This document shows positions 1,237-32,158 of a stretch of 32,158 bases of DNA, one piece after another. The first letter of the stretch is position 1; every line of letters begins with the position of its first letter. The position numbers were made by a program, and so were the translations under genes. The notes under the pieces are model-generated. The model ran no database searches, was not told the DNA's origin, and was given only the letters and a program-made list of their open reading frames with translations. The DNA comes from a virus (taxonomy: Duplodnaviria; Heunggongvirae; Uroviricota; Caudoviricetes). Where the stretch lies: IMG/VR virus record IMGVR_UViG_2529292726_000025, positions 1-32,158 of that record. One strand, given 5' to 3'.

Positions 1237-1237
1237 A

Positions 1238-1453: not shown

Positions 1454-1531
1454 CGCATCACCTCTGGCAGGCGCCAATGTTAGACTGAAATTGACGCCCG
1501 ATGTTGATTATTAATAATCAGCTATGAAGTT

Positions 1532-1753
1532 TTAATTTGAATACAATGCAATTCTCGAGGACTGAAGTTTCTCGCAATTAAAATTTATCAGTTTTACTTT
1601 CTGCTCTCTGGAAACGCCTGCTTCTTTTTTACCTGAGAGCATTTTTTCGCATTCTGATTTCGTTAGTTTAGATTTTGAATATCTTGTCCAGTTAGTAGGA
1701 GTGCCACCTTCCTTTTCAATAGTGGCGGTAATTTTATACATGAACACCTCCAT
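1532..1753 (-). CDS. Small prophage protein (YdaC-like), hypothetical
   Basis: ORF between xis and ralR in Rac-like synteny. Start ambiguous (1813, 1753 or 1741); overlaps the ralR 3' end. Confidence 0.4.
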   Translation of the reverse strand: MEVFMYKITATIEKEGGTPTNWTRYSKSKLTKSECEKMLSGKKEAGVSREQKVKLINFNCEKLQSSRIALYSN

Positions 1754-1928
1754 TATTATTTCCAGTGGTTCGTTTATTCCATCTTTCGAGTGCTTCTTTT
1801 TCACTTCCACCATAACCGGTTCGGGATTCGCATCCGTTACACTTCGCTCGGTAATATCCTGAAATGGCTTTCACCGTTACTGATGGACAACCACAAAATG
1901 GACATGGTTTAACATTGTCATATCTCAT
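1734..1928 (-). CDS. ralR: RalR/Lar-like restriction-alleviation protein and type I toxin candidate, 64 aa
   Basis: Sequence MRYDNVKPCPFCGCPSVTVKAISGYYRAKCNGCESRTGYGGSEKEALERWNKRT with a Cys4 zinc-ribbon-like pattern. Located directly downstream of recT as in Rac. Confidence 0.72.
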   Translation of the reverse strand: MRYDNVKPCPFCGCPSVTVKAISGYYRAKCNGCESRTGYGGSEKEALERWNKRTTGNNNGGVHV

Positions 1929-1984
1929 AATTTTTCTCATAAAAAATATTTCAAGTTGGCGGTGCATTACACCGCCAGGCTGAA

Positions 1985-2794
1985 TTATTCCTCTGAATTA
2001 TCGATTACACTGTATTCCCCGGTTAATACAGAGGAATCTGCAGGATCGATTGTCAGTGGTTCCTTTTCATCCATTGATACTGCACGCTGGATCTCAATTG
2101 ATACGGGCAGATATTTGAACAGGCGACGAATAGCCGTTTTCTTTGCCATTTCTTCCCAGTGAGTTACCCACGGCCCGTTATTACCAGCTTTACTCAGGCT
2201 GCGCACCAGCTCAATCTGTTTGCGCGTCATAACTTCAAACTGAGTACCTCCGTCTTTCAGTCTTGCGACAGCATAGACGTGGGTAACCGGGGCATCTTCG
2301 TTTTCTCCCGGGCGGTGTATTAACTTTTCATCAAGGCCAAATTCGAAGCTAAACTCGTCACCTTCACGGACAACACGGGCTGACAGGCTGGCGATTTGAC
2401 CAGAACGGCGAGCCAGATCAATCATGCCGCGATAGCCAATGATTAGCTGAACGTTCTTTTTACCGCTCTTTTCGTTTTTATTACCAAAAGGCAGTAAATA
2501 TGCATGACCGAGGGCGCTACCTGGCTCAAGTCCGAGCTGTGAACACTGTACGATCGCACTGACAAAACTCATAGTGTCACAGTTTCCTAACGCCGGAACT
2601 TTACGAATTTCTGTGGTGGCGATACGGATCATACGTTCAGCCGTCATATGGCGTGGAAGAGCTGCTGCCAGTTGCTCTTTCATTGATGGCTGGTTAATAA
2701 AACTAATCACGTCGCTATTTTTAACTGCTGCTGGTGCACGGTTTCCCTGAGTTTTTTGCAGATCGGCTTTTGCGATTGGTGGTTGCTTAGTCAT
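1985..2794 (-). CDS. recT: RecT single-strand annealing recombinase, 269 aa
   Basis: Begins [35 protein letters not shown] and runs full length. Start overlaps the recE stop, indicating an operon. Confidence 0.9.
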
Positions 2795-5450: not shown

Positions 5451-5545
5451 TTTGTTTTAACCTCATTACAGATTTCAGGGTGAACGAATCCCTGCCATTG
5501 CTGGCATTTTTAATCCGTTGGTATGGTGTTAATATGGCTGGAGGG

Positions 5546-5734
5546 TTATCCAGCCGGTGTTTCGTTATTCAGGTACAGCGATACTTTTTTTAGCGGGAGG
5601 CATTCACCAGAAATTTTTTGCTCGTCTCTTGCCTGGAGGCAGGATTCTTTACTTGCATAAATTCCGGTAATCACATTCTGTGATTCACCCGTTATAAGAA
5701 AAACCGTCATCATCAGTGCAAATGCTGAAGTCAT
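5546..5734 (-). CDS. Small protein with hydrophobic N-terminus (YdfD-like), 62 aa
   Basis: ORF overlapping the dicB-like stop by 4 nt. N-terminal hydrophobic segment MTSAFALMMTVFLITG. Confidence 0.45.
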   Translation of the reverse strand: MTSAFALMMTVFLITGESQNVITGIYASKESCLQARDEQKISGECLPLKKVSLYLNNETPAG

Positions 5735-8391: not shown

Positions 8392-8622
8392 ATGAAAAAA
8401 TCAGAAGTATTAGGCTATTTTGGCGGAGTTGTTAAAACAGCCGCAGCTCTAGGAACGTCAAAAACCACAGTCAGCATGTGGGGGGAAGAGGTTCCGTGGA
8501 AATGGGCGTTGCTAATTCAGGCAGTCACTGCCGGGGCGCTCAAATATGAGTTACACATACCGACGGTTGTCATTCCCGGTTCTGATCATAATCCGCCTTC
8601 TAACCAAGGGGGGGATTCATGA
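8392..8622 (+). CDS. Cro/YdaS-like small HTH regulator, 76 aa
   Basis: Divergent from the repressor. Start ATG 8392 with GGAG Shine-Dalgarno. HTH-like segment VVKTAAALGTSKTTVSMW. Confidence 0.6.
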   Translation: MKKSEVLGYFGGVVKTAAALGTSKTTVSMWGEEVPWKWALLIQAVTAGALKYELHIPTVVIPGSDHNPPSNQGGDS

Positions 8623-9044
8623 AAATCAAGCATGAACACATCCGCATGGCGATGAATGCCTGGGCGCATCCGGACGGCGAGAAAGTACCGGCTGCAGAGA
8701 TTACCAAAGCGTATTTCGAGCTGGGAATGACGTTCCCGGAACTGTATGACGACAGCCATCCGGAAGCCCTGGCTCGCAATACCCAGAAAATTTTCCGCTG
8801 GGTAGAGAAAGACACCCCTGATGCAGTTGAAAAAATTCAGGCGTTGTTACCAGCGATCGAAAAGGCAATGCCACCTTTGCTGGTGGCCAGAATGCGCAGC
8901 CACAGTTCTGCTTATTTTCGGGAGCTGGTGGAGACGCGGGAGCGACTGGTGAGAGACGCTGATGATTTTGTCGCAGTGGCAATCGCCGGTTTCAATCAGA
9001 TGAACCGCGGTGGCCCGGCGGGAAATGCCGTGGTGATGCACTAA
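8619..9044 (+). CDS. YdaT-like protein (proposed CII-position regulator or toxin of Rac-type prophages), 141 aa
   Basis: ORF overlapping the cro-like stop. N-terminus MKIKHEHI as I recall for Rac YdaT. Sits in the cro / ydaT / O / dnaC order. Confidence 0.55.
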   Translation: MKIKHEHIRMAMNAWAHPDGEKVPAAEITKAYFELGMTFPELYDDSHPEALARNTQKIFRWVEKDTPDAVEKIQALLPAIEKAMPPLLVARMRSHSSAYFRELVETRERLVRDADDFVAVAIAGFNQMNRGGPAGNAVVMH

Positions 9045-13007: not shown

Positions 13008-14061
13008 GTGCGGGTATTACTTCGACCTGTTCCGGTACCGGAACTTGGGCTGGTGGTGCTAAAACCGGGCCGTGAATCCATGCAGGTATTTCATAACCCT
13101 CGAGTGCTGGTGGAGCCTGAACCGAAAAGCATGCGTAATCTGCCGTCCGGGGTCGTTCCTGCCGTTCGCCAGCCGCTGGTGGAAGACAAAACATTGCTGC
13201 CGTTTTTCAGTAACGCACGGGTAATTCGTGCTGCTGGTGGTGCTGGTGCATTGTCTGACTGGCTGTTGCGCCATATTAAATCCTGCCAGTGGCCTCATGG
13301 TGATTATCATCACAGTGAAACCGTCATACATCGTTACGGTACCGGTGCGATGGTATTGTGCTGGCACTGCGACAACCAGTTGCGTGACCAGACATCCGAA
13401 TCACTCGGGCGGCTTGCTCAACAAAATCTGACAGCCTGGATGATTGACGTCATACGTCACGCAATAAGTGGTGCACTGGAACGGGAATTATCGCTGGCTG
13501 AATTATCCTGGTGGGCGCTCTGCAATCAGGTAGCGGACGCACTACCGGAGGCAGTATTACGTCGTTCTCTGGGGGTACGCGCGGAAAAAATCCACTCAGT
13601 ATACCGCGAGAGTAACATCATGCCGGGAGAACAGACAGCCACCAGCATACTGAAGCAGCGCACAAAAAATTTTGCGCCGTTGCCTCGCGCCCACCAGCAA
13701 CAGAACCCACCACAGGAAAAGACGGTGGTCAGCATTACCGTTGATCCGGAGTCACCGGAATCATTCATGAAGCGGCCTAAACGTCGCCGCTGGGTTAACG
13801 AGAAATACACGCGCTGGGTAAAGAAAGACACAGCCGTGTACGTGTTGTGGTAAGCCAGCAGACGATCCCCATCACCTGATTGGTCACGGTCAGGGAGGGA
13901 TGGGAACAAAGGCCCACGATATTTTCACGCTACCGCTGTGTCGGGAGCATCACAACGAGCTTCATGCGGATCCGCTGGCGTTCGAAGAAAAGCATGGTTC
14001 CCAGATTGATTTAATTTTTCGTTTTCTTGATCACGCCTTTGCAACTGGCGTGCTTGGGTAA
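13008..14061 (+). pseudogene. DUF968 / YdfU-like prophage protein with C-terminal HNH-like zinc motif, split by a frameshift near 13825-13853
   Basis: GTG 13008 follows a GGAGG Shine-Dalgarno. The frame ends at 13853 (..KYTRWVKKDTAVYVLW*). The conserved C-terminus (CGKPADDPHHLIGHGQGGMGTKAHDIFTLPLCREHHNELH...) continues in the +1 frame to 14061. Confidence 0.5.
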
Positions 14062-14073
14062 AAGAGGTGACTG

Positions 14074-14433
14074 ATGCTCATAGATTTGGTTTTCCCTTAC
14101 CCGCCGACGGTGAACACTTACTGGCGACGCCGTGGCAGCACATATTTTATCTCGGAGGAGGGAAAGCGTTATCGCCGGGCTGTGGCGCTTATTGTTCGCC
14201 AGCAGCGGCTGAAATTAAACCTGTCCGGAAGGCTGGCGATAAAGATTATTGCAGAGCCACCGGATAAGCGCCGCCGCGACCTGGACAATATCCTGAAGGC
14301 ACCACTGGATGCGCTGACGCATGCCGGACTACTTATAGACGACGAGCAGTTTGATGAAATCAATATTGTGCGCGGTCAGCTCGTTCCTGGTGGGCGGCTG
14401 GGGATAAAAATCACAGAACTGGAGTGCGCATGA
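14074..14433 (+). CDS. rusA: RusA Holliday-junction resolvase, 119 aa
   Basis: RusA-family signature ...PPDKRRRDLDNILKAPLDALTHAGLLIDDEQ... Typical position upstream of Q. Confidence 0.85.
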   Translation: MLIDLVFPYPPTVNTYWRRRGSTYFISEEGKRYRRAVALIVRQQRLKLNLSGRLAIKIIAEPPDKRRRDLDNILKAPLDALTHAGLLIDDEQFDEINIVRGQLVPGGRLGIKITELECA

Positions 14434-15119
14434 ATAACCAGTATTTACAGTTTGTGCGTGAGCAGCTCATTATCGCCACCGCTGATTTGAGTGGGGCAAC
14501 AAAAGGTCAGCTTGAAGCCTGGCAAGAGAATGCCATGTTCGATACAGGGCGTTACAGGCGTAAAAAAATCCGGTACCGCGATGAAGTGACTGGAAAAATG
14601 ATAACGCGGGATAATCCACCAATCCCGGGAAAGCAATCGCTGGCGAAAGGTTCATCAATTGCCCTGGTCAGTCCGGTTGAGTTTTCGACATCATCATGGC
14701 GACGCGCCGTTCTGTCTCTTGAAGAGCATCAGAAGGCGTGGGTGCTGTGGGTATACAGTGAAAATCCGAGTTGGGATTATCAGGTGGTCATTGCGAAATG
14801 GGCGTGGGATAAGTTTCAGGTGCATTTTGGCACCAGAAAAATTACAGGGAAAACGCTTGAGCGTCTGAAGAAATTAATCTGGCTGGCGGCGCAGGATGTC
14901 AGGGGGAGGATTACTGGGCGTGACGTCTACCAGCGACAGGAACTTGCCAGACTGTGTGGAGTTAAGCCTGACAACTGGAGCCATAATTATGCGAACTACT
15001 GGCGTGAGATGTGCGACATTTTTAAGAAACTCGATACAGAATCCTTGATTTGCACCGTGAAAATGAGATCGCAACAAAAAGCGACCTTTTCACGACGAGA
15101 TATTGCAAAAGTCAATTAA
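14424..15119 (+). CDS. Late-gene antiterminator Q-like protein (QuuQ / phage 82 type), 231 aa
   Basis: Position directly after rusA and directly before a promoter/terminator pair, matching the hok / rem / ydfU / quuQ order in Qin. Assignment is by synteny and size, not a verified motif. Confidence 0.45.
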   Translation: MRMNNQYLQFVREQLIIATADLSGATKGQLEAWQENAMFDTGRYRRKKIRYRDEVTGKMITRDNPPIPGKQSLAKGSSIALVSPVEFSTSSWRRAVLSLEEHQKAWVLWVYSENPSWDYQVVIAKWAWDKFQVHFGTRKITGKTLERLKKLIWLAAQDVRGRITGRDVYQRQELARLCGVKPDNWSHNYANYWREMCDIFKKLDTESLICTVKMRSQQKATFSRRDIAKVN

Positions 15120-15165
15120 ATCGCATACATTTTATGTAAATGTGATATTTTGCCGTATAGTGTGT

Positions 15166-15190
15166 AAACCCACTTAAATGCGGGTTTTTT
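15166..15190 (+). terminator. Intrinsic terminator-like hairpin plus U-run downstream of Q (tR'-like)
   Basis: aaaccc..gcgggttttttg: a 6-8 bp stem followed by T6. Confidence 0.4.
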
Positions 15191-15220
15191 GCTTAACTCT
15201 GTGGACCTTTTTATCTGTAG

Positions 15221-15246
15221 TTGTAAGATATGGATATTCTTACAAT
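15221..15246 (+). promoter_or_regulatory. Palindromic promoter/operator candidate upstream of the kinase
   Basis: ttgtaaga-N9-tcttacaa, an 8-bp inverted repeat. Its TTGTAA and TACAAT hexamers resemble -35 and -10 elements. Lies 18 bp upstream of the kinase ATG. Confidence 0.35.
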
Positions 15247-15263
15247 TTAGGTCGGTGAGCTTA

Positions 15264-16018
15264 ATGGAAGAACAGCACGGTAATTACTTTATAAAACGAA
15301 TTCAGTTGATTGGAAGGGGTGCATTTGGCTTTGTTGAACACGTTAAGGTTTACAACCTCAACAAGGGTGAATGTGGGGATTATGCTAGAAAGGTGAAAAA
15401 CCAGAGCTTTTGGCGCAAATAGAGCAGTTTAGAAGGCGTTTTAAAAGGGAGGTCGTGTATCAATCACATTGCGTACATAGCAATATTGTTCCTATTTATT
15501 TGTGCGATTTGTTTGCCGAGAATCCATGGTTCATTATGGATAAAGCAGAATGTGATCTTGAGCACGAAATAACGAACAACCTTCTTACAACAGATCAAAA
15601 AATTTCAATAGTGAAAATGGTATTAGATGGTGTAGCTCACATCCATGCGAAAGGCTATTTACACAGAGATATAAAACCATTTAATGTCTTGCGATTTAGC
15701 GACGGAACATACAAGGTGTCTGATTTTGGTCTGGTAAAAGATACAAATCCCGAAGGGGATACCACTAAATTGACCGAGATCGGTACCCGTATGGGAAGTA
15801 CAAGATATATGGCTCCCGAGATTTTATATAATGCCGAGTATTCAGTTAAGACTGATGTTTATGCGGTGGGGCGGTTAATTGAGGACTTAAATTTAGATGA
15901 TAAAAAAATAAAGCCTATCATAGCGAAGTGTACCAGGATGGATAAAGATGATAGATATCAGACAATAGATGATGTGGCGTTTGATTTTGTGCATTCTTTT
16001 TTAAGGAGTGAGTCATGA
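15264..16018 (+). CDS. Hanks-type (eukaryotic-like) Ser/Thr protein kinase, interrupted by a -1 frameshift in an A5 run (15396-15400)
   Basis: Glycine loop IGRGAFGFV, beta-3 lysine YARKVK, catalytic loop HRDIKPFN, DFG (VSDFGL) and APE (YMAPEIL). The N-lobe fragment 15264-15422 and catalytic fragment 15410-16018 are in different frames. Confidence 0.8.
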
Positions 16019-16758
16019 TTCAGCTGATAGCGACTTCATCATTCTCGTATCCAAAAGAACCAGGTAGGGTCAACGAAGATTCATTGCTTCCTCCCAAAAT
16101 TGTAGGGGATGGCATCTTATTTGCCGTAGCTGATGGTGTAGGTTCATACACTGGTGCCAGTCAGGCTTCATCAATGGCAATTGCTGAACTTTCAGCATTG
16201 ACAAGCTTATCTTTTGACACAGTTCCGGATGTATTTGATGAAGTTAAGCGAAAGGTTATGTCGTTAGCTGATGTTAATGATGAGTTCGATAAAGCTGCTA
16301 CTACACTTACGTTTTGTTATGTTTGTGATAGCGGAATTATTATTGGTCATATTGGTGATTGTCGTTTGTATTGCATTGGAGAGAAGAAAGCATACCAATT
16401 GACGAAGGACGATACCAGGCATCAGATGCTAATTGATCAGAATATTTTTAAACCCAGAGATTTGAAGGATAAACCGGGCAAAAATATCTTAACGACGGCT
16501 ATAGCCTCAAATGTTGATATGGAATACGACTGTGATTTTATCACATGGAAAGATTTACCTAGTATTAACGGGGTATATCATCTGTGTATCATGTCTGATG
16601 GGGTTCATAACGTTTGGGAAAAACGCCCCAGATTTACATCAAATACGATGAGTAATAGTCAGAAGTTTTCTAATGGCATTTTGCGTCGTATAGAGAGAGC
16701 CGGACCTGATGATGACTTTTCTTTAGTAAGTATAATGGTGCGTGTGACGTCAGATTAG
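16015..16758 (+). CDS. PP2C-family (PPM) Ser/Thr protein phosphatase, 247 aa
   Basis: PPM motifs NEDS, FAVADGVGS, HIGDCRLY, MSDGV and PDDDFS. ATGA start/stop overlap with the kinase indicates translational coupling. Confidence 0.8.
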   Translation: MIQLIATSSFSYPKEPGRVNEDSLLPPKIVGDGILFAVADGVGSYTGASQASSMAIAELSALTSLSFDTVPDVFDEVKRKVMSLADVNDEFDKAATTLTFCYVCDSGIIIGHIGDCRLYCIGEKKAYQLTKDDTRHQMLIDQNIFKPRDLKDKPGKNILTTAIASNVDMEYDCDFITWKDLPSINGVYHLCIMSDGVHNVWEKRPRFTSNTMSNSQKFSNGILRRIERAGPDDDFSLVSIMVRVTSD

Positions 16759-16831
16759 TTGTATAAACTCAGTAGGGAATGCTAATTTCACATACAACAT
16801 AGTTAAAGAAAACTTAATTTTAATGTAAAAA

Positions 16832-16855
16832 GGCTGCCCTCAGGCGGTCTTTTTA
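16832..16855 (+). terminator. Intrinsic terminator after the kinase/phosphatase cassette
   Basis: ggctgcc-ctca-ggcggtc hairpin (with G-U pairs) followed by ttttt and preceded by an A-run. Confidence 0.5.
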
Positions 16856-16977
16856 TGCTCGAAAATTGATGCAGTACGTTAAACGCGCTGGTGGTTGCGA
16901 ATACCGGTCTTTCAGCTTGCTGGCTTTTTAGACAAGAGTTATTGGTATGTCACGTTAACCAGAAAAGGGAAAAAGAC

Positions 16978-17175
16978 ATGCTAAAACAGCAGGATATGAC
17001 CGAAACCGCCAGAGTGGTGTTTAATGAATTAAGCGTCACCGAACCGGCGACCGTCGGGGAAATTGCGCAGAATACTTACCTTTCACGCGAACGCTGCCAG
17101 TTAATCCTGACCCAGCTTGTTATGGCGGGTCTGGCAGATTATCAGTTCGGTTGTTACAGACGCCTTCCGCAGTGA
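16978..17175 (+). CDS. Small putative winged-helix DNA-binding protein, 65 aa
   Basis: ATG 16978 with upstream GGGAAAAAG. Sequence MLKQQDMTETARVVFNELSVTEPATVGEIAQNTYLSRERCQLIL. Lies upstream of the methyltransferase gene. Confidence 0.4.
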   Translation: MLKQQDMTETARVVFNELSVTEPATVGEIAQNTYLSRERCQLILTQLVMAGLADYQFGCYRRLPQ

Positions 17176-17325
17176 AGGCTTTTTAATTTGTGGTAATGGG
17201 CGGCTGGTGGGTGTTAGCGGCACCTGCCAGCCATCTGCTCATGCGTTGGGGTCACAAGCAAACCTCAGGCCCATCTGCTTTGCGCAAAAGCAGTATGAGC
17301 CTATCAGAGAAGTGCTTATTGATCT

Positions 17326-17820
17326 ATGACTAATACTGTAAAAATATCCAGTTGTGAGTTAATCAACGCTGATTGCCTGAAATTTATCCAGACCTTACCG
17401 GAAAACTCTGTCGATCTGATAGTCACAGACCCGCCATACTTTAAAGTGAAGCCCGAGGGCTGGGATAACCAGTGGGAGGGCGACGATGATTACCTGAAAT
17501 GGCTGGACCAGTGTCTGGCGCAGTTCTGGCGGGTACTGAAGCCTGCCGGAAGTCTTTACCTGTTCTGTGGTCATCGCCTGGCATCTGACACCGAAATCAT
17601 GATGCGTGAGCGCTTTAATGTGCTGAACCACATTATCTGGGCGAAGCCGTCCGGACGCTGGAACGGGTGCAATAAGGAAAGTCTGCGGGCGTATTTTCCG
17701 GCAACAGAGCGCATTCTGTTTGCAGAACATTATCGGCACCATTCAAACATCTCCCCAAGTCTACTAAAGTCTTTCAAAACCCCTTATAATCCGCGTATTA
17801 AAGCCCCGTTCGTCTTTTGA
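17326..17820 (+). pseudogene. DNA N6-adenine (or N4-cytosine) methyltransferase, DPPY-first type, 3'-truncated at about 17750
   Basis: N-terminal motif IV LIVTDPPYF and conserved core through ERILFAE. The C-terminal AdoMet-binding FxGxG region is absent; the last 20 or so codons are junk-like and span a 23-bp direct repeat. Confidence 0.65.
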
Positions 17821-17844
17821 CGTCTACTAAAGTCCCTCAAAATC
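17759..17844. repeat. Imperfect 23-bp direct repeat pair at the prophage/satellite junction (att or Int arm-site candidate)
   Basis: gtctactaaagtctttcaaaacc (17759-17781) and gtctactaaagtccctcaaaatc (17822-17844), 20 of 23 identical. Followed by gggggtac / gtaccccc inverted repeats before int. Confidence 0.5.
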
Positions 17845-17906
17845 TACGGTCAGATGGGGGTACTTATGGGGGTATTTACTGTTCGGTTTAGTGGAGGTAC
17901 CCCCAA

Positions 17907-19121
17907 GTGAAACTCAATGCCCGTCAAATAGACACAGCCAAGCCAAAAGAGAAGGCTTACAAGCTGGCCGATGGTGGCGGTTTGTATCTCTTGGTAAAAC
18001 CTAATGGAGGTAAATACTGGCGACTTAAATATCGTGTAGCTGGTAAAGAGAAGCTATTGGCACTAGGTGTTTATCCTGAGGTTACTCTAGCCGATGCTCG
18101 GGCAAAACGTGAAGATGCGAAAAGAGGTATCGCTGGTGGTATCGATCCGATGGAAGCGAAACGAGAGGAAAAGATTGCCCGGGAAACGCAGTTAAACAAC
18201 ACCTTCAAAGATATTGCCATTGAGTGGCACAGCAGCAAATTAAAAAAATGGTCTGCTGGTTATGCTTCAGACATCCTCGAAGCCTTCAACAAAGATGTGT
18301 TCCCTTACATTGGCAAAAAAACCATCGCCGAAATCAAACCACTTGAACTTCTGAATGTGCTGCGGCGCATCGAGGGGCGCGGTGCTACAGAAAAAGCCAA
18401 AAAAGTGAGGCAGCGGTGCGGGGAAGTTTTCCGCTATGCAATAGTCACTGGTCGCGCAGAGTATAACCCTGCACCAGACCTTACTAGCGCGATGCAAGGC
18501 CATGAATCTAATCATTACCCTTTCCTTACAGCCAAAGAATTACCTGATTTTTTCAAGGCATTGTCCAGTTACTCAGGAAGCGCATTGGTTGTTATGGCGG
18601 CTCGTCTACTGATTATCACAGGCTTGCGGACTGGCGAACTACGTGGCGCATTATGGGATGAAATTGATTTCAACAAGGCTCTCTGGGAGATACCCGCTTC
18701 ACGTATGAAAATGCGGCGGCCTCATATTGTGCCATTGTCTGAGCAGGCTCTTTCGCTTATTGGGAAGATTAGAGAAATAACAGGCAATTACCCTCTTATG
18801 TTTCCCGGGCGCAATGATCCAAGGAAAACAATGAGCGAGGCCAGCATAAACCAAGTGTTTAAGCGCATTGGCTACGCTGGACGTGTAACTGGTCATGGGT
18901 TCCGGCACACTATGAGTACGATTTTGCATGAGCAGGGCTATAACACCGCGTGGATAGAAACGCAGCTCGCTCACGTTGATAAGAACTCAATTCGTGGCAC
19001 ATACAACCATGCGCAATATCTGGATGGAAGGCGGGAGATGCTTCAATGGTATGCCGACTATATGGATTCTCTCGAGCATAGCGGAAATGTGGTGCATATG
19101 GTGTTTGAAAAACACGCATGA
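17907..19121 (+). CDS. P4-type tyrosine integrase, 404 aa
   Basis: GTG start after a GGAGG Shine-Dalgarno. P4-like N-terminus (KAYKLADGGGLYLLVKPNGGKYWRLKYR) and catalytic R..HxxR..Y (RTGELRGALWDEIDF; HGFRHTMST; RGTYNHAQY). Confidence 0.9.
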   Translation: MKLNARQIDTAKPKEKAYKLADGGGLYLLVKPNGGKYWRLKYRVAGKEKLLALGVYPEVTLADARAKREDAKRGIAGGIDPMEAKREEKIARETQLNNTFKDIAIEWHSSKLKKWSAGYASDILEAFNKDVFPYIGKKTIAEIKPLELLNVLRRIEGRGATEKAKKVRQRCGEVFRYAIVTGRAEYNPAPDLTSAMQGHESNHYPFLTAKELPDFFKALSSYSGSALVVMAARLLIITGLRTGELRGALWDEIDFNKALWEIPASRMKMRRPHIVPLSEQALSLIGKIREITGNYPLMFPGRNDPRKTMSEASINQVFKRIGYAGRVTGHGFRHTMSTILHEQGYNTAWIETQLAHVDKNSIRGTYNHAQYLDGRREMLQWYADYMDSLEHSGNVVHMVFEKHA

Positions 19122-19772
19122 AACAACTGGACAAGTATACAGAGGTTTACTAAAGTATAGGGGAGTAGATTGATAAAAACTCACAGAGGATTACTATTTA
19201 ACAGTTAGCCCTGGAGAAGGGCAATCGCTCTTTTAACAACGAAGATGGAATCTTCTACGCAGCTGAAAAGCTGGATGCTCTTTAACAGCCTTTGGTGCTT
19301 TCCTGATGCAGGAAAGAATAGGGATACATGCACCTTTACAATGCATGTAATGATTCATCCATGAGGCTGCGGATCGCTGACAAAGCGCAATTGCTCTTTA
19401 ACATTGATGTGGGCGGGATGGTTCGTCCCGCAGTGACCGATAGATTTCTATCGGGAAACATACAATGATTCAAATATGAATCTACGGCGCTGACAAAGCG
19501 CAATTGCTCTCTTGCCTGCCCACCATGCCCTGAAAAAGGGCGTTCTTTAAAACTACTGGATGTCACGCCTAATAGCGTGATCCTGCCGAAATGCAGGGTA
19601 GCTCTACCCTTGTGGAGCAAACAAACCAAAACAATCTGACTATCTTTTATAAAAGACCGCAATATGTTTTTCATATTGTGGTCTTTGGCGTATTCGACAT
19701 TTGATGCAAATAAAACTCTCGCCATTCGTTGCAGGAGGGAGTTATTGCGTCATTAGTACAGGATATTAATAA

Positions 19773-19976
19773 ATGGCTAATTACAATTCATTAATTCGTC
19801 TCTCTGAAGTTCAAAGGCGAACTGGTTATAGCAAAGCATGGATTTATCGTCTTATTAGTCAGGGGAGGTTCCCTAAACAGGTAAAAATTGGAAGTCGGGC
19901 AATTGCTTTTGTTGAGTCTGAAATAGATGAATGGATTGAGAAGTGTATATTAGAATCTAGAGACGAGGTGGCCTGA
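19773..19976 (+). CDS. alpA: AlpA-family transcriptional regulator / excisionase-like protein, 67 aa
   Basis: LIRLSEVQRRTGYSKAWIYRLISQGRFPKQVKIGSRAIAFVESEIDEWI is a typical AlpA/Xis MerR-like HTH. Downstream of a P4-type int. Confidence 0.8.
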   Translation: MANYNSLIRLSEVQRRTGYSKAWIYRLISQGRFPKQVKIGSRAIAFVESEIDEWIEKCILESRDEVA

Positions 19977-20407
19977 TGGAAAAGAAAAACCGCCCATTAC
20001 AGGCGGCTAATTCAGATATTCGTGTATCTGATGTTACGCCCCTTACAAAATCCCTTCAAGCACCAAAGCGCACACCGAAAAAGCATCGTGCCAGAGTCTA
20101 TATGCTGCGTACTGGTATAGAGGGATGGACAGAAAATGACATTCTTCGCTACTGCCGTCTGTCTTCTGGTCGTAACTATGCAACAGAGTTAGAACGCCAG
20201 CTTGGAATCACTCTGGAGCGTATCGACGAAAAGAATCCTGATGGTATCGGAACACACCTTCGCTACCGTTTCTCCTGCCGTGGTGATGTTCTGAAAGTGA
20301 TCACTCATATTAACCATCTTGCGAACATAAATGATCACAACGGACTTTCTCAGCAGGAAATTGCCGACATTCTGAAACTCTACCCGGACGCGTTTAACGC
20401 CGCCTAA
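19976..20407 (+). CDS. Hypothetical satellite-element protein, 143 aa
   Basis: ORF coupled to the alpA stop (ATGA overlap). Basic N-terminus. No assignable motifs. Confidence 0.45.
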   Translation: MEKKNRPLQAANSDIRVSDVTPLTKSLQAPKRTPKKHRARVYMLRTGIEGWTENDILRYCRLSSGRNYATELERQLGITLERIDEKNPDGIGTHLRYRFSCRGDVLKVITHINHLANINDHNGLSQQEIADILKLYPDAFNAA

Positions 20408-20419
20408 CGGAGACTGAAA

Positions 20420-21253
20420 ATGAACATCGAAAAAAGCAGATTAATTTCTGAGGCCGCCCCTCATCTGAACGCCTCTCTGGGCACAATTAACGGTAATGAA
20501 TTTGCCGCAATTGTCCCGGTTATTCCTGGTCATATCGGTGGGCGTGAAACCAATATTGTTAGCGCAAAAGCGTTACACAAAGCGTTGGGCGTGGGAAAAG
20601 ACTTCTCTACATGGATCACTGATCGCATCTCTGAATATGACTTCACCATTGGGCACGATTACTCAGTCCATAAAACAATTTCCCCAAATTTGGGGAAAAG
20701 CCCGAATGGCGCGGCTTACAGCAAGATTAAGCAGTCTGGCAGACCCGGCAAAGACTATCTGTTAAGTGTCGGAATGGCGAAAGAACTGGCAATGATCGAA
20801 CGCAATGATCAGGGTCGCGCTATCCGCCGTTATTTCATCCAGTGCGAGGAAGAATTACAGCGTAGCGTGCCTGAAATCGCCGCCCGCTATCGTCGCCAGC
20901 TAAAAGCCCGTATCAGTGCCGCAAACAACTTTAAGCCAATGTGCGATGCGCTGAATATGGCCCGTGCCGAGATGGGTAAAACGACGCAGCAACACCACTA
21001 CACAAACGAGAGCAATATGATTTCTCGTATCGTTCTTGGTGGGCTAACTGCTAAGCAGTGGGCGCGGATAAATGGCTATTCTGGCGAACCTCGCGACCAT
21101 ATGAACGCAGAACAGCTTGAGCACCTCTCATATCTCGAAAGCACCAATATCACGTTAATTGATATGGGCATGGAATATGAGCAGCGCAAAGGAGAACTCA
21201 CCCGCCTGTCGCAACGCTGGCTCGCCAAGCGTCTGGAGGTGGTCAATGTCTAA
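20420..21253 (+). CDS. Phage antirepressor-like regulatory protein (Rha/KilAC-type, tentative), 277 aa
   Basis: Size, position and general composition suggest an antirepressor-family regulator (...SAKALHKALGVGKDFSTWITDRI...). Not verified by motif. Confidence 0.4.
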   Translation: MNIEKSRLISEAAPHLNASLGTINGNEFAAIVPVIPGHIGGRETNIVSAKALHKALGVGKDFSTWITDRISEYDFTIGHDYSVHKTISPNLGKSPNGAAYSKIKQSGRPGKDYLLSVGMAKELAMIERNDQGRAIRRYFIQCEEELQRSVPEIAARYRRQLKARISAANNFKPMCDALNMARAEMGKTTQQHHYTNESNMISRIVLGGLTAKQWARINGYSGEPRDHMNAEQLEHLSYLESTNITLIDMGMEYEQRKGELTRLSQRWLAKRLEVVNV

Positions 21254-21428
21254 GCCAACAGGAACACCACAACCACAAAAACGCTACAAAGATGCCCACG
21301 GAGCACTCGTTACTGTCGAAAGCGTGTCTCACAACCGAGTGACGTTTTATCGCGACGGGTATCAATCGCCATGCGTACAACCGCTGGCGCGTTTCATGAA
21401 GGAGTTCGCGGAGGTTAACAAATGCTAA
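21246..21428 (+). CDS. Hypothetical small protein, 60 aa
   Basis: Start overlaps the stop of the upstream gene; part of a tightly packed operon. Confidence 0.35.
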   Translation: MSKPTGTPQPQKRYKDAHGALVTVESVSHNRVTFYRDGYQSPCVQPLARFMKEFAEVNKC

Positions 21429-22288
21429 CCGTCCAGAAGAAGACATTTTCACTGGCTGGTATGTCGCCAAAATCCAGCAATATGACGGCAAAGTCAGGCA
21501 TTAATACAGCAGATGCAAGCAAAGTTTATCATTTGCTGGTGGTCGGAACGGATGCCTTAACCATATCAGAAATCTCGGGCGATGATATTAGCATTGAGAA
21601 GGTCAGCGGCTGCGCCAGAAAATTTCTGGTCGTAGATGATGTCTTCCGCTCGTGTAGTGACTCCACAAAAACATTCGTCCACGCGCGTGACGTTAACGAA
21701 ATGAGCGCGATGTACTGTGCATCTGGTGCTTCCAATAGCGAGTTTTCGGAGTCCATAAAAAAGAGCTTGCCGTTATGCGGCAACACGGTTTATGGTTATA
21801 AGGCACCTCATAAAACGGGTGCCGGGATTGGCGTCCTGGTAAATCGAATGGCGACATATGACGCGCCGAGCGTCTTTTTTTATGTCGTAGGTCTGACTCA
21901 CCCATTTTTTGGGCGTTGGTGTATAATCCAGCGCCTTTGTCAATCAATGGTGGCTCAGGCAGGGGCTTCTTCGGAAGCGCCGGTATCCATTCGAGCCGGT
22001 TACGCCAACCCTGTCTGGGCTACCACCAGCGAAATTGGCGTTTCCGGTGGTAGCGTTACATGCTATCGAATGGAGGCTGCCACATGCTGGCTACTACCCC
22101 TACCCAAAAACCGCAATTTATCTGGATTATCGCCGCAGTTCGCCGCAGTTCGCCGCGATTGCCCGACAATTACCGCCAAAATTCATCATATTGCTGCCGA
22201 GTCTGAACGCGATGCTCGCCGTTCTCTGGTGCGCGATCACGTCTGCTTTTTTGCTGGTCGTATCCGCATGGAGGTGGCACATGATTAA
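21422..22288 (+). CDS. Hypothetical satellite-element protein, 288 aa, containing a tandem DNA repeat
   Basis: Long ORF in the operon. Contains the 10-bp tandem duplication cgccgcagtt at 22133-22160. Confidence 0.4.
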
Positions 22289-22499
22289 AACCTACGATGT
22301 GCATATGGATCCCCTCGAACGCACAAGCCAGATCATCACACTGACAGAAGTGATTAACGACATTCTGGTGAGCAACTCTCCCTCACGAGACGAAAGACTG
22401 AAGGCGTTACTCGCGATATTGGATCTCGCCGTTCGTGACGTTCATTTCCTGCTGGAAGGTGGCGAAATGCCAGGAAAAACGGGGGCAACCAATGAATAA
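22281..22499 (+). CDS. Hypothetical small protein, 72 aa
   Basis: ATG 22281 with GGAGGTGG Shine-Dalgarno. Overlaps the upstream stop. Confidence 0.4.
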   Translation: MIKTYDVHMDPLERTSQIITLTEVINDILVSNSPSRDERLKALLAILDLAVRDVHFLLEGGEMPGKTGATNE

Positions 22500-22686
22500 C
22501 TCAATTAATACCCCTCGCCTTACGTCCGCACTTCAATTAATCGAGCAAGCAGCGGCTGTCCTGGTTGCTGTCAGTCTTTCGGCTGAAGAAATGGACGCTG
22601 CTGATGTCGTGGATGCGATTAAAGCGTGCTCATCTTTGGTTAACGATGCCCGTGCCGAGCTGGTAATTCTTGGGGGTGAAAAATGA
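22492..22686 (+). CDS. Hypothetical small protein, 64 aa
   Basis: Start and stop overlap neighbouring genes. Confidence 0.35.
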   Translation: MNNSINTPRLTSALQLIEQAAAVLVAVSLSAEEMDAADVVDAIKACSSLVNDARAELVILGGEK

Positions 22687-22946
22687 ATATCAACTTAATT
22701 TATCGTCATCCGTGTGAGCTGGAAATTGAATCATTGCTGGGGCGTGAAGAGCCATATCCAGACACATTCACTCCCGCAGATTGCGCGACTGAACGGCTTA
22801 CCAGAGCGCGCACAGGTCTGGTTCATGTGATGAATGAGATTGTTCCCTCGGTGGGAGGGGAACAGGCGACAGTAATCAATAGCTGGCTACAAAAAGTTAC
22901 CTCCCTGATAGATATCGGTTTAATCGATGTGGAGAGTGCGAAATGA
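22683..22946 (+). CDS. Hypothetical small protein, 87 aa
   Basis: ATGA overlap coupling within the operon. Confidence 0.4.
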   Translation: MNINLIYRHPCELEIESLLGREEPYPDTFTPADCATERLTRARTGLVHVMNEIVPSVGGEQATVINSWLQKVTSLIDIGLIDVESAK

Positions 22947-23164
22947 CCAACATCCAGCTCATTGAAGCGCAATGTCGCATCGAACAGGTTCAGACTGTTT
23001 TAGGGTTCTGGCTTGAAGGGGCCAGCCCCAGCAACAGAGACAAGTTAATGATTGGCGCGGTTATGTCACTGCTCAATGGCGTACCAGAAGCTATTCAGGA
23101 AGCGGACGAATTGTTGGGCAAATATGAGTTACAGAATCATTCAGGCGAGGCGAAACATGAATAA
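22943..23164 (+). CDS. Hypothetical small protein, 73 aa
   Basis: ATGA overlap coupling within the operon. Confidence 0.4.
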   Translation: MTNIQLIEAQCRIEQVQTVLGFWLEGASPSNRDKLMIGAVMSLLNGVPEAIQEADELLGKYELQNHSGEAKHE

Positions 23165-23759
23165 TTTCTTAACCTTCCATGCAGAAGCAACGCCTGACGG
23201 CGTAAACATCATGCACCGCAGCAACGATGGCATGACAGAACGCGTTGAGACCGTCTCATATATTGATGCCGTAAATCGTCTGGATGCCGGGGATTATGAC
23301 GATAAACCAGATGAAGGCATGTTTATACATCTCGCTATTGCCAGTGGCGGCAACCAGGGATATTTCGATTACACATCACAGCATCACGTGATTATGTGGC
23401 GCTGGCTGATAGCAACAGCATTCATCAATGAAATGAGAAAGGAAAACGGCACCGTCAGCATTATTGATGACAGTGGCAATCATTCCGTGGTTTCTGTTTA
23501 TTCCAATGGCATCGTCGCCATGCCGCTGTATCCAGTAGCAGAGCGCCTCGCTATGGCAAACAACATTGAGGGCGCAATGATCGAGAAATATGGTGTTGAT
23601 GTCGGAACAAAGAATGCCATCATTTTTTACAGCAACATGTTCGATGTCGAACAGGGAACACTCACTTCGTTTGGGCGAGAAGTGCTTGCCGATCTTCACA
23701 ACAGCTTTATTGCCGAACTAAACGAAAACGGCATCCCAGAAGCACCAGTGACGCACTAA
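23157..23759 (+). CDS. Hypothetical protein, 200 aa
   Basis: Start overlaps the upstream stop. Immediately precedes the primase gene. Confidence 0.45.
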   Translation: MNNFLTFHAEATPDGVNIMHRSNDGMTERVETVSYIDAVNRLDAGDYDDKPDEGMFIHLAIASGGNQGYFDYTSQHHVIMWRWLIATAFINEMRKENGTVSIIDDSGNHSVVSVYSNGIVAMPLYPVAERLAMANNIEGAMIEKYGVDVGTKNAIIFYSNMFDVEQGTLTSFGREVLADLHNSFIAELNENGIPEAPVTH

Positions 23760-23771
23760 ACGGGGGCCAGA

Positions 23772-26528
23772 ATGCGAAACATTGATCTTATCCGTCAGGT
23801 TATCAGTGCGTCTGAAAACAACTGGCCTCATGTGCTGGGCTGTCTGAACATAAATGTCCCTGACTCTCCTCGCCGTCATGCTCCCTGCCCTGCATGTGGG
23901 GGCAAAGATCGATTCCGGTTCGACGACAACGGGCGCGGTAGCTTCATCTGTAATCAGTGCGGCGCTGGTGATGGGCTGGATTTAATTAAACGCGTAAATA
24001 ACTGCGACACAACAGAGGCGGCGCTTCTTGCCGCTGATGTTCTGGGTATTGATTACCGGACAACGGAAACACCAGAAGCCACCAGCCAGAAACGGGAACA
24101 ACTGGAAACCGAGCGCCAGCGACGCGAACAGGAGCGCCTGAAAAGGGCAGAGAAGGACGAACAACAAAGACGGGATACGTTTTCCCGTCAGTTTGATGAC
24201 ATGCGCAGAAAGGCTGTAAACGGCAAATCTGATTATCTGGTTGCGAAAGGGGTAGGTGATTTTACATTCCCAGTGTTGCCCGATGGATCTCTGTTGCTGG
24301 CGCTGGTGGATAAATCCGGCGCAGTCACAGCAGCACAGACTATTACCTCACATGGTGAAAAAAGACTCCTGACAGGTTCAGCAAAGCGAGGGGCATATCA
24401 CGCCATAAACGCACCAGAAACAACACAGAGCATCTTAATCGCAGAAGGGCTGGCAACGGCATTATCTGCCCATTTAATTCGTCCAGAATCGCTGACAGTG
24501 GCGGCGATTGATGCCGGGAACCTGTTATATGTCGCCCAGGTACTGCGGGATAAATTTCCTTCAGCACAAATCATCATTGCTGCGGATAACGACCACAGCG
24601 AAGGAAGACAAAACACGGGGAGAATAGCAGCAGAAAAAGCAGCTTTATCTGTTTCTGGATGGGTGGCATTACCCCCGACAGATCACAAAGCAGACTGGAA
24701 TGATTACCACCAAAAACACGGCATTAAATGCGCCACAGAAGCGTTCAATAAGTCAATGTACCAACCACAGGGTAATGGCGTGAAACAGCAGCCACAGACC
24801 ATTGAGGGAAGCGATTTTAAGGTTATGGATACCGACCCACTGAAACCAAGAATAGAAAGCCGCGAGGATGGTATTTATTGGGTATCTCCGAGAGCTGACA
24901 GCCAGAGTGGAGAAATCATCAATAACGAAAGCTGGTTATGTTCTCCGTTAAGCGTTATCGGTACTGGCAGAGACGATAAAGACCAGTATCTCATTCTTCG
25001 CTGGCTGTCGTTTGGTTCTGAAACGCCGACAACCGCTGCCATTCCACTGGCTGATATTGGTGAACGTGAAGGATGGCGCACACTTAAAGCTGGTGGGGTA
25101 AATGTCACGACCAAAAGCAGCCTCAGAGCAATACTGGCAGACTGGCTACAACGCAGTGGCTCTCGTGAATTGTGGCGTGTTGCTCATGCCACTGGCTGGC
25201 AATGCGGAGCGTACATCATGCCTGATGGGGAAATCATCGGAACACCTGAAAATCCTGTGCTGTTCAGCGGGAGAAGCTCAGCCGCAGCCGGATATACCGT
25301 CTCAGGGAGCGCGAAAAGCTGGCGTGATAACGTGGCGCGTCTGGCCTTTGGTAACTATTCAATGATGACCGGGATCGGCGCAGCACTGGCAGCGCCATTG
25401 ATTGGGCTGGTGGGCGCTGACGGGTTCGGCATTCATTTCTATGAGCAGTCGAGCGCAGGTAAGACCACCACGGCAAACGTGGCGAGCAGCTTATACGGCA
25501 ACCCTGATTTACTGCGGCTGACGTGGTACGGAACCGCGCTGGGGCTGGCAAATGAAGCCGCCGCCCACAATGACGGACTAATGCCGCTTGATGAAGTTGG
25601 TCAGGGCGCTGATCCTGTCAGTGTTTCACAGTCTGCCTATGCGTTATTTAACGGTGTAGGGAAACTGCAAGGCGCTAAAGATGGTGGAAACCGGGATCTA
25701 AAACGCTGGCGTACAGTGGCAATCAGCACTGGAGAAATGGATTTAGAAACATTTATCGCTACTTCCGGGCGAAAAACCAAAGCCGGGCAACTGGTGCGAC
25801 TGCTGAATATTCCGTTGAGTAAAGCAGTACGCTTTCACGATTACCAGAACGGAAAACAGCACGCAGACGCACTGAAAGACGCTTACCAGCATCACCACGG
25901 CGCAGCCGGGCGTGAGTGGATTAAATGGCTGGCAGACCACCAGCAACAGGCTATTAAAACTGTTCGTGACTGCGAAAGCAGATGGAGAAGCCTGATTCCA
26001 TCCGATTATGGTGAGCAGGTTCACCGTGTAGCCGCGCGATTTGCCATTCTGGAGGCCGCATTGCTGTTAGGCGAGGTTGTAACAGGCTGGGATGCTCAGA
26101 CATGCCGTGATGCGATACAGCACAGCTATAACGCATGGTTGCGCGAGTTCGGCACAGGTAACAAAGAACATCAGCAGATTATTGAACAAACGGAGGCATT
26201 TCTTAATGCCTATGGGCTTAGCCGTTTTGCACCATTTCCATACAGCCCGGCAGATTTGCCAATCAAAGATTTAGCCGGATACCGTCAGCGTGGAGAACAT
26301 GACGAAAGCCCAATGATTTTCTACACATTCCCGGCCACATTTGAAAAGGAGATCGCATGTGGTTTCAACGCAAAACAGTTTGCTGAAGTGTTGAAAAAAG
26401 CCGGGATGCTAACCCCACCAAACAGCGGTCGTGGATACCAAAGAAAATCACCACGTATTCAGGGACGACAAATAAACGTTTATGTACTCAATTACCAGCC
26501 AGGAGATTACAACTCATCTGAAGAATGA
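23772..26528 (+). CDS. Satellite-phage primase / replicase (P4 alpha-like), 918 aa
   Basis: N-terminal zinc-binding primase motif (CPACGGKDRFRFDD...FICNQCG). Large multi-domain protein. Iteron origin lies immediately downstream, as with P4 alpha and ori. Confidence 0.8.
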   Translation: MRNIDLIRQVISASENNWPHVLGCLNINVPDSPRRHAPCPACGGKDRFRFDDNGRGSFICNQCGAGDGLDLIKRVNNCDTTEAALLAADVLGIDYRTTETPEATSQKREQLETERQRREQERLKRAEKDEQQRRDTFSRQFDDMRRKAVNGKSDYLVAKGVGDFTFPVLPDGSLLLALVDKSGAVTAAQTITSHGEKRLLTGSAKRGAYHAINAPETTQSILIAEGLATALSAHLIRPESLTVAAIDAGNLLYVAQVLRDKFPSAQIIIAADNDHSEGRQNTGRIAAEKAALSVSGWVALPPTDHKADWNDYHQKHGIKCATEAFNKSMYQPQGNGVKQQPQTIEGSDFKVMDTDPLKPRIESREDGIYWVSPRADSQSGEIINNESWLCSPLSVIGTGRDDKDQYLILRWLSFGSETPTTAAIPLADIGEREGWRTLKAGGVNVTTKSSLRAILADWLQRSGSRELWRVAHATGWQCGAYIMPDGEIIGTPENPVLFSGRSSAAAGYTVSGSAKSWRDNVARLAFGNYSMMTGIGAALAAPLIGLVGADGFGIHFYEQSSAGKTTTANVASSLYGNPDLLRLTWYGTALGLANEAAAHNDGLMPLDEVGQGADPVSVSQSAYALFNGVGKLQGAKDGGNRDLKRWRTVAISTGEMDLETFIATSGRKTKAGQLVRLLNIPLSKAVRFHDYQNGKQHADALKDAYQHHHGAAGREWIKWLADHQQQAIKTVRDCESRWRSLIPSDYGEQVHRVAARFAILEAALLLGEVVTGWDAQTCRDAIQHSYNAWLREFGTGNKEHQQIIEQTEAFLNAYGLSRFAPFPYSPADLPIKDLAGYRQRGEHDESPMIFYTFPATFEKEIACGFNAKQFAEVLKKAGMLTPPNSGRGYQRKSPRIQGRQINVYVLNYQPGDYNSSEE

Positions 26529-32096: not shown

Positions 32097-32158
32097 TCTC
32101 ACTCCCATCAGGTACCCGTATCTGGCTCGTTGCCGGCGTTACCGATATGCGTAAATCC
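32093..32158 (+). CDS. IS66-family orfB (TnpB-like), 5' fragment cut by the window end
   Basis: Begins MISLPSGTRIWLVAGVTDMRKS, the characteristic IS66 TnpB N-terminus. Confidence 0.65.
   Translation, partial: MISLPSGTRIWLVAGVTDMRKS

Follow-up and report, generated by a model that had tools for sequence, protein, structure and literature searches.

A two-gene kinase–phosphatase cargo module of temperate phages, carried with a disrupted kinase gene behind a prophage Q antiterminator

The window analysed here is a stretch of 32,158 nucleotides (nt), positions 1 to 32,158 of the IMG/VR virus record IMGVR_UViG_2529292726_000025. Directly behind a Q-type late antiterminator gene, it carries a cassette of two genes, one for a Hanks-type Ser/Thr protein kinase and the other for a PP2C-family phosphatase. 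Comparison with related loci leaves us nearly certain that this cassette is a mobile two-gene cargo module of temperate phages, which combines a minimal RD-type Hanks kinase of about 254 amino acids (aa) with a translationally coupled, cytoplasmic PP2C of about 247 aa. The module was found in at least four accessory slots across Gammaproteobacteria, namely after Q, after the lysis genes, after CI and after N. The copy in the window cannot work, because a deletion parts the ATP-binding elements of the kinase N-lobe from the catalytic core. As to intact copies, we give about an even chance that they act as a phosphorylation-based toxin/antidote switch that excludes other phages, by analogy with the kinase–kinase–phosphatase module KKP.

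Identity of the two enzymes and the lesion in the kinase gene

The two genes, the lesion and the ribosome-binding site between them lie in the window as follows.

15265–15422, plus strand: N-terminal fragment of the kinase gene, with Gly-rich loop (GRGAFG) and beta-3 Lys (YARKV), which then runs out of frame until a stop
15394–15395, plus strand: site of a 10-bp deletion (TTTAGCCCCC missing), from pairwise comparison with the intact allele L001
15410–16018, plus strand: C-terminal fragment of the kinase gene, with the alpha-C Glu, the catalytic loop HRDIKPFN, DFG, the activation loop with Thr174, and APE
16003–16008, plus strand: Shine–Dalgarno (SD) sequence AAGGAG of the phosphatase, within the end of the kinase gene and 6 nt before the ATG
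16015–16758, plus strand: intact PP2C/PPM Ser/Thr phosphatase, 247 aa, WP_000615424.1

The original prediction, read from the letters of the window alone, had assigned the pair to a Hanks-type kinase and a PPM/PP2C phosphatase, and profile searches, structure models and invariant motifs all confirmed this assignment. With its frame repaired, the kinase matched PF00069 (E 1.9e-33) and phrog_2361, 'serine-threonine kinase' (E 3e-97); NCBIfam was not diagnostic, and Pfam recognised only PF00069 and PF07714 in the 254-aa protein, with no domain beyond the catalytic one. Its closest solved sequences were S. aureus Stk1/PknB, StkP, PknB and IRAK4. An AlphaFold2 model built on a 40-sequence alignment reached a mean predicted local distance difference test score (pLDDT) of 89.9, and the top Foldseek matches of this model were PknB, Stk1 and other kinases. 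We judged the invariance of catalytic residues across 31–40 homologues, and found G17/G19/G22, K43, E66, H137-R138-D139-K141-N144 and D157-F158-G159 of the kinase to be unchanged throughout. The intact allele has both the motifs and the bilobal fold of a Hanks-type kinase. The invariant HRD places it among the RD kinases, and Thr174 in the activation segment is kept in at least 90% of the sequences; residues 171–177 of this segment formed the sole low-confidence, disordered stretch of the model. Among the PADLOC models, those of mad6, PD-T4-6 (best E 2e-35) and Stk2 (E 2e-28) hit the kinase, each over the catalytic core only.

In the window, no uninterrupted frame joins the ATP-binding and the catalytic elements of the kinase, and the label given to 15455–16018 by the Prokaryotic Genome Annotation Pipeline (PGAP) is 'protein kinase domain-containing protein'. 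A frameshift had been noted at the outset, and it is real; its nature had to be corrected, in that 10 bp are deleted after 15394 and no single base has slipped. Slippage in an A5 run was considered as its origin and ruled out by the alignment that revealed the deletion. The intact 254-aa allele, WP_000392434.1, is held by 19 other E. coli genomes. The same deletion is present in the independent assembly of strain 510016, so that it represents a true mutation of this lineage rather than an error in the reads.

The phosphatase gave matches to PF13672 (E 2.1e-14), to the NCBIfam Stp1/PP2C model (E 1.4e-26) and to phrog_5650 (E 6.7e-65), and has no domain beyond the catalytic one. PstP, Stp1, tPphA and PppA were the closest solved sequences; consistently, the AlphaFold2 model (pLDDT 93.5) retrieved PstP, Stp1 and tPphA as the top Foldseek matches, with template modelling (TM) scores of 0.75–0.80. 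The residues D22, D40-G41, D195-G196 and D233-D234 were invariant, and the protein has the metal-binding Asp residues of motifs I, II, VIII and XI together with the beta-sandwich fold that characterise PPM/PP2C enzymes. Translational coupling of the two genes through an ATGA overlap at 16015–16018 was likewise upheld, the ATG of the PP2C gene (16015–16017) lying on the TGA of the kinase gene (16016–16018).

Distribution, pairing and mobility

Homologue searches yielded about 200 proteins per gene across Gammaproteobacteria, the kinases mostly of about 250 aa and the phosphatases of about 247 aa, and many of the kinase and PP2C matches lie on contigs of equal length, as would be expected of shared contigs. 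They come from Yersinia, Hafnia, Providencia, Proteus, Xenorhabdus, Photorhabdus, Serratia, Pantoea, Pectobacterium, Enterobacter, Klebsiella, Cronobacter, Gilliamella, Haemophilus, Pasteurella, Aeromonas, Vibrio, Photobacterium, Pseudomonas, Acinetobacter and Xanthomonas. When 1.84 billion cluster representatives were searched by profile, about 20 clusters formed a compact core at E < 1e-60, and 70 were reached at E < 1e-30.

The survey of homologous cassettes that the original prediction had proposed showed the pair together and in the same order in all loci examined. We collected 95 loci seeded on the kinase, consisting of 15 genomes or isolated phages and 80 IMG/VR viral contigs, and in every one the kinase gene was followed by a PP2C gene on the same strand, with an overlap of exactly 4 nt in 74 of the 95. 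A search seeded on the PP2C added 78 new loci, 75 of which had both genes at full length; the three exceptions were one frameshifted kinase and two contig edges. No orphan kinase and no orphan PP2C was found among the 95 and 78 loci. The two genes co-occur obligately and are co-translated, as is typical of toxin–antitoxin pairs.

Even a distant, second-tier PP2C (P0261) has a 253-aa kinase upstream; it adjoins HigBA genes and a transposase. Variants on the theme (P0254, P0365; L100, 771–2809) comprise a 371-aa protein in which a core-family PP2C is joined to an HNH_2 nuclease domain, a PP2C–kinase fusion protein of 580 aa, and a distant PP2C that lies, with a 4-nt overlap, behind a 441-aa kinase of the PD-T4-6 length class.

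Of 5426 complete E. coli genomes, about 50 (about 1%) contain the cassette, always on the chromosome and always in a prophage, which disposes of the idea that it is a housekeeping module. Two alleles exist, 94.8% identical to each other. The carriers include enterotoxigenic E. coli (ETEC; E24377A and 510016-like strains) and the enteroaggregative E. coli (EAEC) strain 55989. Presence in such pathogens, and the use of the same post-Q slot by Shiga toxin in related phages, might suggest a virulence factor delivered by lysogenic conversion that acts on the mammalian host, like the NleH, OspG or YpkA kinases. We consider this highly improbable: the family extends to Gammaproteobacteria from the environment, insects, plants and the sea, a secreted effector would have no use for a partner phosphatase in the producing cell, and the nearest structures are those of the bacterial PknB/Stk1 and PstP/Stp1 enzymes.

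To describe where the module resides, 74 non-redundant contexts were sorted by the gene directly upstream, and four slots recurred.

After a Q-like antiterminator: 18 contexts, the antiterminator being PF06323/phrog_304 (13), lambda-type PF03589 (3) or phrog_943 (2)
After an Rz-like spanin: 14 contexts, behind the lysis genes, and before terminase where checked (L010, L012, L037)
After a CI-type repressor: 9 contexts, co-oriented with the repressor gene and with a divergent Cro
After an N-like antiterminator: 4 contexts

The slot behind CI is the one in which lambda keeps rexAB. Outside these slots, the module turned up, among others, in a Mu-like prophage, at the edge of a tail cluster of P2 type, in the early region of a Haemophilus prophage, in a small element whose coat protein is of PM2/PRD1 type, and in Xanthomonas at a non-phage locus with a NACHT protein and a SymE toxin as neighbours. 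It is also carried by two isolated temperate phages, Cronobacter phage phiES15 after Q and Escherichia phage Flotzy after the lysis genes, and the pair of phiES15 is already annotated as putative kinase and phosphatase. Both surfaced in a protein-level search; a megablast search with the cassette, covering 50,697 phage records, gave no match.

The frequent neighbourhood of the master regulators CI, N and Q, and the reversible writer/eraser design of the pair, could also fit a regulatory phospho-switch that serves prophage lysis–lysogeny or host physiology and would tune induction by phosphorylating a nucleoid-associated silencer or repressor. KKP offers a precedent, as it controls induction of the Pf prophage through phosphorylation of MvaU. 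Such a role nevertheless appears quite unlikely to us. The cassette moves among unrelated phage types, slots and non-phage loci, which argues against its being wired into one circuit, and it is dispensable, given that the same backbone bears other cargo in sister prophages and that the strain of the window tolerates a dead kinase.

The cargo block behind Q and its signals

Comparison with E. coli strain 41 (L179) delimited the block in which the cassette is carried. The block and the signals in and next to it are listed below.

15142–15150, plus strand: extended -10-like motif TGATATTTT, in the backbone just left of the cargo boundary
15157–16845, plus strand: exchangeable cargo block with the whole kinase–PP2C cassette, boundaries from strain 41
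15166–15190, plus strand: terminator hairpin with U-run (tR'-like) at the 5' end of the cargo, weakened by G>A at 15172
15221–15245, plus strand: perfect 8-9-8 palindrome TTGTAAGA-N9-TCTTACAA in the conserved leader, arms at 15221–15228 and 15238–15245
16826–16855, plus strand: cassette terminator, -18.3 kcal/mol, z score -4.48, symmetric and flanked by an A-run and a U-run

Backbone homology to strain 41 stops at 15156 and restarts at 16846. Between these points strain 41 carries a different post-Q cargo (L179, 1433–2464), which consists of two unrelated genes for proteins of 75 and 265 aa and which also has a hairpin in front and a terminator at its end. Since the same Q backbone holds different cargo in strain 41, the post-Q slot is a hotspot of cargo exchange. 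The post-Q cargo proteins of strain 41 and of Enterobacter had no Pfam or PADLOC match. The location of the cassette in a cargo slot directly after Q, proposed originally, was established by the intact relatives and by this alternative cargo, and its AT-richness was evident too, the G+C content being 36–41% across the cassette versus 48–56% in the flanks. Distinct composition, presence or absence among sister phages and a terminator of its own are hallmarks of a lambdoid moron that the cassette displays. This terminator is strong and coincides with the right boundary of the cargo.

The terminator-like hairpin described at 15166–15190 is canonical in the relatives, where it folds at -13.5 kcal/mol (z score -4.3), whereas in the window it reaches only -8.1 kcal/mol (z score -1.4). 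The weakening is due to the G>A change at 15172 in its stem, which is confined to the window and absent from 510016 and from all other alleles examined. The arrangement of Q followed by a hairpin is also found in phiES15, L030, L033, L034 and L067. Judged from the borders of homology, the hairpin is part of the swappable cargo block and not of the Q backbone. One scenario, in which a weakened terminator raised kinase expression and thereby selected for loss of the kinase, was rejected; the change at 15172 arose after the kinase deletion, because 510016 has the deletion without the terminator change.

The leader (15191–15264) differs from that of the other E. coli allele (L015, 4072–4146) at 2 of 74 nt, where the synonymous divergence (dS) between the alleles is about 0.15 (Poisson P about 0.001). 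Both changes fall at mirror positions of the palindrome and turn G-C into U.G. As RNA, the palindrome folds at -10.8 kcal/mol (z score -3.65), and it is degenerate in a third variant, L030. These features hint that the leader palindrome may be a functional RNA hairpin or an operator. The original prediction had read it as a promoter/operator-like site: the palindrome is real, but the promoter or operator found no support, a scan for consensus promoters over 15000–17400 having done no better than shuffled sequence (6 sites versus 6.6 expected), with none in the leader. In L034 (5250–6003), about 700 nt lie between the post-Q terminator and the kinase gene, including a 90-aa open reading frame on the opposite strand (5317–5589, from a naive caller). 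This arrangement indicates that the leader of the cassette is separable from the unit of Q and terminator.

The -10-like motif at 15142–15150, which the scan did not call, has counterparts after Q elsewhere: TGATATATT in 55989, TGATATTAT in phiES15, TGATATTGT in L030 and the same motif as in the window in strain 41. We infer from this recurrence that it is a candidate PR'-type late promoter, of which the post-Q hairpin may be the tR'.

Selection, expression signals and a possible mechanism

Between the two E. coli alleles, the kinase gene has a ratio of nonsynonymous to synonymous divergence (dN/dS) of 0.03 and the PP2C gene one of 0.12, and intact copies of both genes are under strong purifying selection. 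The predicted SD sequence of the PP2C gene is stronger than that of the kinase gene in 52 of 53 non-redundant loci, with a mean anti-SD duplex of -8.2 versus -4.3 kcal/mol (Wilcoxon p 5e-10). This difference and the conserved overlap of start and stop jointly predict that more phosphatase than kinase is made.

Decay was one-sided as well, since every disruption that a contig edge does not account for affects the kinase. The kinase is disrupted beside an intact PP2C in the window lineage, by the 10-bp deletion; in L031 and L094, by C-terminal frameshifts near A-runs; in L063, where the invariant Trp of the PWF motif has become a stop; and in L065, by a stop at codon 3. In L093, the kinase is rearranged. 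An intact kinase with a broken PP2C was found in none of the loci examined. RD kinases with an activation-loop Thr are expected to require phosphorylation of that loop for activity, and the phosphatase therefore has an obvious way to hold the kinase off. The SD asymmetry, the kinase-only lesions and the dN/dS values fit a toxic kinase that is restrained by an over-made phosphatase.

We infer the toxicity of the kinase, its trigger, its targets and a phage-exclusion phenotype along the following lines. The harmful enzyme would be the kinase. A far stronger ribosome-binding site would supply the phosphatase in excess, and the phosphatase would keep Thr174 of the activation loop and cellular substrates dephosphorylated. 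Infection by another phage would tip this balance, because a phage protein blocks the phosphatase or activates the kinase, or because expression is lost. The kinase could then autoactivate and phosphorylate host and/or phage proteins, so that the infected cell or the incoming phage is arrested.

Several observations speak against a toxin/antidote switch of this kind. The lambdoid copies usually lie inside Q-dependent late or lysis-proximal transcription units, and given this late-unit location and the lack of a consensus promoter, expression in a lysogen is plausible only for the CI-linked copies, which could use the repressor promoter. Toxicity of KKP needs two kinases with CSD and FHA domains, and the kinase of the cassette is without them. 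PADLOC yielded no convincing model for the phosphatase, the best being PDC-M21C at E 0.007. The asymmetry of decay is small (5–6 versus 0, two-sided binomial about 0.03–0.06), and the frameshifts of L031 and L094, being near A-runs, could be sequencing errors. Finally, the prophage of the window carries other pseudogenes, so the kinase lesion may be ordinary decay and need not reflect selection.

The location of many copies also invites a different explanation, in which the module works during the lytic cycle for host takeover or counter-defence and aids the carrier phage from a Q-dependent late transcript or other lytic operons. Here the kinase would phosphorylate host machinery or defence proteins, as the T7 kinase does, and the phosphatase would limit the damage or erase phosphorylation laid down by host defences. 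About 32 of the 74 contexts are co-directional and right after Q or the lysis genes, and further copies sit in Mu late or early lytic operons. The terminator hairpin in front of the cassette means that read-through would need Q, no promoter of its own emerged from the consensus scan, and the abstract of a preprint reports that the T7 kinase broadly disarms bacterial defences. On the other hand, nine contexts are co-oriented directly behind CI, a position expressed in lysogens, and some copies lie outside prophages, beside NACHT/SymE or HigBA genes. The strong terminator and the conserved leader resemble those of autonomous morons, and an over-made phosphatase with kinase-only decay is more naturally understood as self-restraint of a toxic enzyme. 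On balance we regard lytic host takeover as unlikely.

Returning to the toxin/antidote switch, a more specific form of it would be a minimal two-protein phospho-switch immune system that is not a degenerate KKP: a lone, domain-less RD kinase as the effector of abortive infection or exclusion and an over-made, translationally coupled PP2C as both brake and phage sensor, carried as cargo in at least four moron slots. We advance this version tentatively and would place it somewhat short of an even chance.

The prophage of the window and its flanks

The closest public assembly to the window is that of ETEC strain 510016, with 99.9% identity over 3900–31585, 29 substitutions and no gaps. Fifteen of the 29 substitutions are packed into 3910–4006, and positions 1–3899 and 31586–32158 of the window are unrelated to the 510016 record. 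The source of the window may be a closely related but separate strain, or else a recombinant prophage. In strain 510016, the prophage is integrated next to ompW.

Upstream, a RusA gene and the Q gene precede the cassette.

14424–15119, plus strand: Q-type late antiterminator, upstream neighbour of the cassette, PF06323 (E 4e-84) and phrog_304 (E 9e-103)

PGAP labels 14430–15119 as 'bacteriophage antitermination protein Q'. In the intact relatives the gene order continues from Q through the kinase, the PP2C, a 65-aa winged helix-turn-helix (wHTH)-like protein, a DNA methyltransferase and tRNA genes to lysis and terminase, a late region that resembles that of Stx phages. The 65-aa protein, encoded at 16978–17175 of the window between the cassette and the methylase, belongs to phrog_331 and has a weak TrmB-type winged-helix match (E 0.003). 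It is part of the phage backbone and not of the cargo, because it is present in strain 41, which has no cassette, and absent from the 55989 locus, which has one.

Homology to the intact sister prophages ends at 17734, inside the DNA methyltransferase gene. What follows is an integrase-led element that occupies 17735–26528 and probably extends further right, with a tyrosine integrase (17907–19121), an HTH protein, an AntA/AntB antirepressor, an Icd-like protein and a TOPRIM/DUF927 primase (23772–26528). From its gene content, it looks like a P4-like satellite or integrative element within the late region of the prophage, in place of the tRNA, lysis and terminase genes. PGAP marks two pseudogenes in the prophage of the sister strain, a Cro/CI-family regulator (window 8392–8635) and a DUF968 protein (13008–14061), both frameshifted; the methylase is truncated. 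This lambdoid prophage is in general decay.

Implications

If intact copies of the module do serve defence or exclusion, this would be the simplest phosphorylation-based system of that kind known, made of two small enzymes without sensor domains. The KKP paradigm of a three-gene module with specialised domains would thereby widen into a general toxin–antidote principle of kinase and PP2C, and the cassette would offer a tractable system in which to learn by what means two such bare enzymes sense infection and which targets stop it. Temperate phages of Gammaproteobacteria from enteric, plant, insect and marine settings commonly carry the module, ETEC and EAEC prophages among them. Annotation pipelines may tag its kinase as a lone PD-T4-6-like match or as a generic kinase, and so miss the obligate PP2C partner. 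With its kinase dead, the copy in the window is itself of little biological consequence.

Comparison with known systems

In structure and profile, the cassette is closest to the housekeeping eukaryotic-type Ser/Thr kinase and phosphatase (eSTK/eSTP) pairs PknB–PstP, Stk1–Stp1 and StkP–PhpP and to the PpkA–PppA pair of type VI secretion systems, with which it shares the logic of an adjacent writer and eraser. However, the kinases of these pairs are large receptors in the membrane that bear PASTA, FHA or vWA modules, and the pairs are chromosomal, universal in their species and usually have the phosphatase gene first, whereas the cassette is a minimal, cytoplasmic and AT-rich pair that phages carry and that about 1% of E. 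coli contain.

Stk2 of Staphylococcus epidermidis and Stk of phage 933W are Hanks kinases that act in abortive infection or exclusion and are triggered by a protein of the infecting phage. The 933W Stk is encoded by the prophage near its immunity region, like the CI-linked copies of the cassette. Both are single-gene systems that are not known to have a dedicated phosphatase. The PADLOC model of Stk2 covers only part of the cassette kinase, and no 933W or Stx-phage record was among the 28 tblastn hits at E <= 1e-8.

Lambda rexAB and the lambdoid morons provide a parallel in genomic placement, as two-gene exclusion cargo behind cI or close to Q and the lysis genes, with a terminator of its own, odd composition and presence or absence among sister phages. 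The biochemistry of rexAB is unrelated to that of the cassette.

Several PADLOC models of PD-T4-6 match the kinase domain of the cassette. PD-T4-6 (Vassallo et al. 2022, PMC9519451) is one protein of 436 aa (open reading frame 62620–63930) that was cloned without a phosphatase, according to the supplementary table. The match is limited to the catalytic core (positions 11–201 of 327), and the cassette kinase has 254 aa and always comes with a PP2C. A single gene for a kinase of about 436 aa whose C-terminal extension is part of a protein sufficient for defence is not what the cassette contains.

The nearest functional counterpart is KKP. The original prediction had stated that a kinase paired with a cognate phosphatase in such a context was not an established named system, a statement that is outdated since KKP was characterised in 2024 (PMC11341870). 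KKP (PfkA/PfkB/PfpC) is a kinase–kinase–phosphatase module of Pf, P2, P4 and Mu prophages (Guo et al. 2024, PMC11341870). Its kinases are jointly toxic and its PF13672 PP2C is the antitoxin, so that it constitutes a phosphorylation-based toxin–antitoxin and anti-phage system, triggered when T4 Gp59 inhibits the phosphatase; the effect on Pf induction via MvaU comes in addition (PMC11341870). The search definition used for KKP was a PP2C followed by two kinases of 300–430 aa; the kinases have a C-terminal CSD (PfkA) or FHA (PfkB) domain (PMC11341870). The literature that we searched, including DefensePredictor, the PADLOC 'embedded systems' preprint and a honey-bee prophage paper, contained no description of the two-gene family, and its references to kinase–phosphatase systems all lead to KKP.

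The cassette resembles KKP in that both are prophage-borne, combine Hanks kinases with a PF13672 PP2C, and are mobile across Gram-negative temperate phages. It differs in having two genes with the kinase first and a 4-nt overlap, where KKP has three genes with the PP2C first, and in its single 254-aa kinase with no accessory domain, where KKP has CSD- and FHA-bearing kinases. The cassette shares with KKP, as described, the location in temperate prophages and mobile elements and is set apart from it by architecture. The functional analogy with KKP stands, as an analogy. The two-gene architecture is distinct from and simpler than that of KKP. The cassette is a good candidate for experiments but not a categorical surprise.

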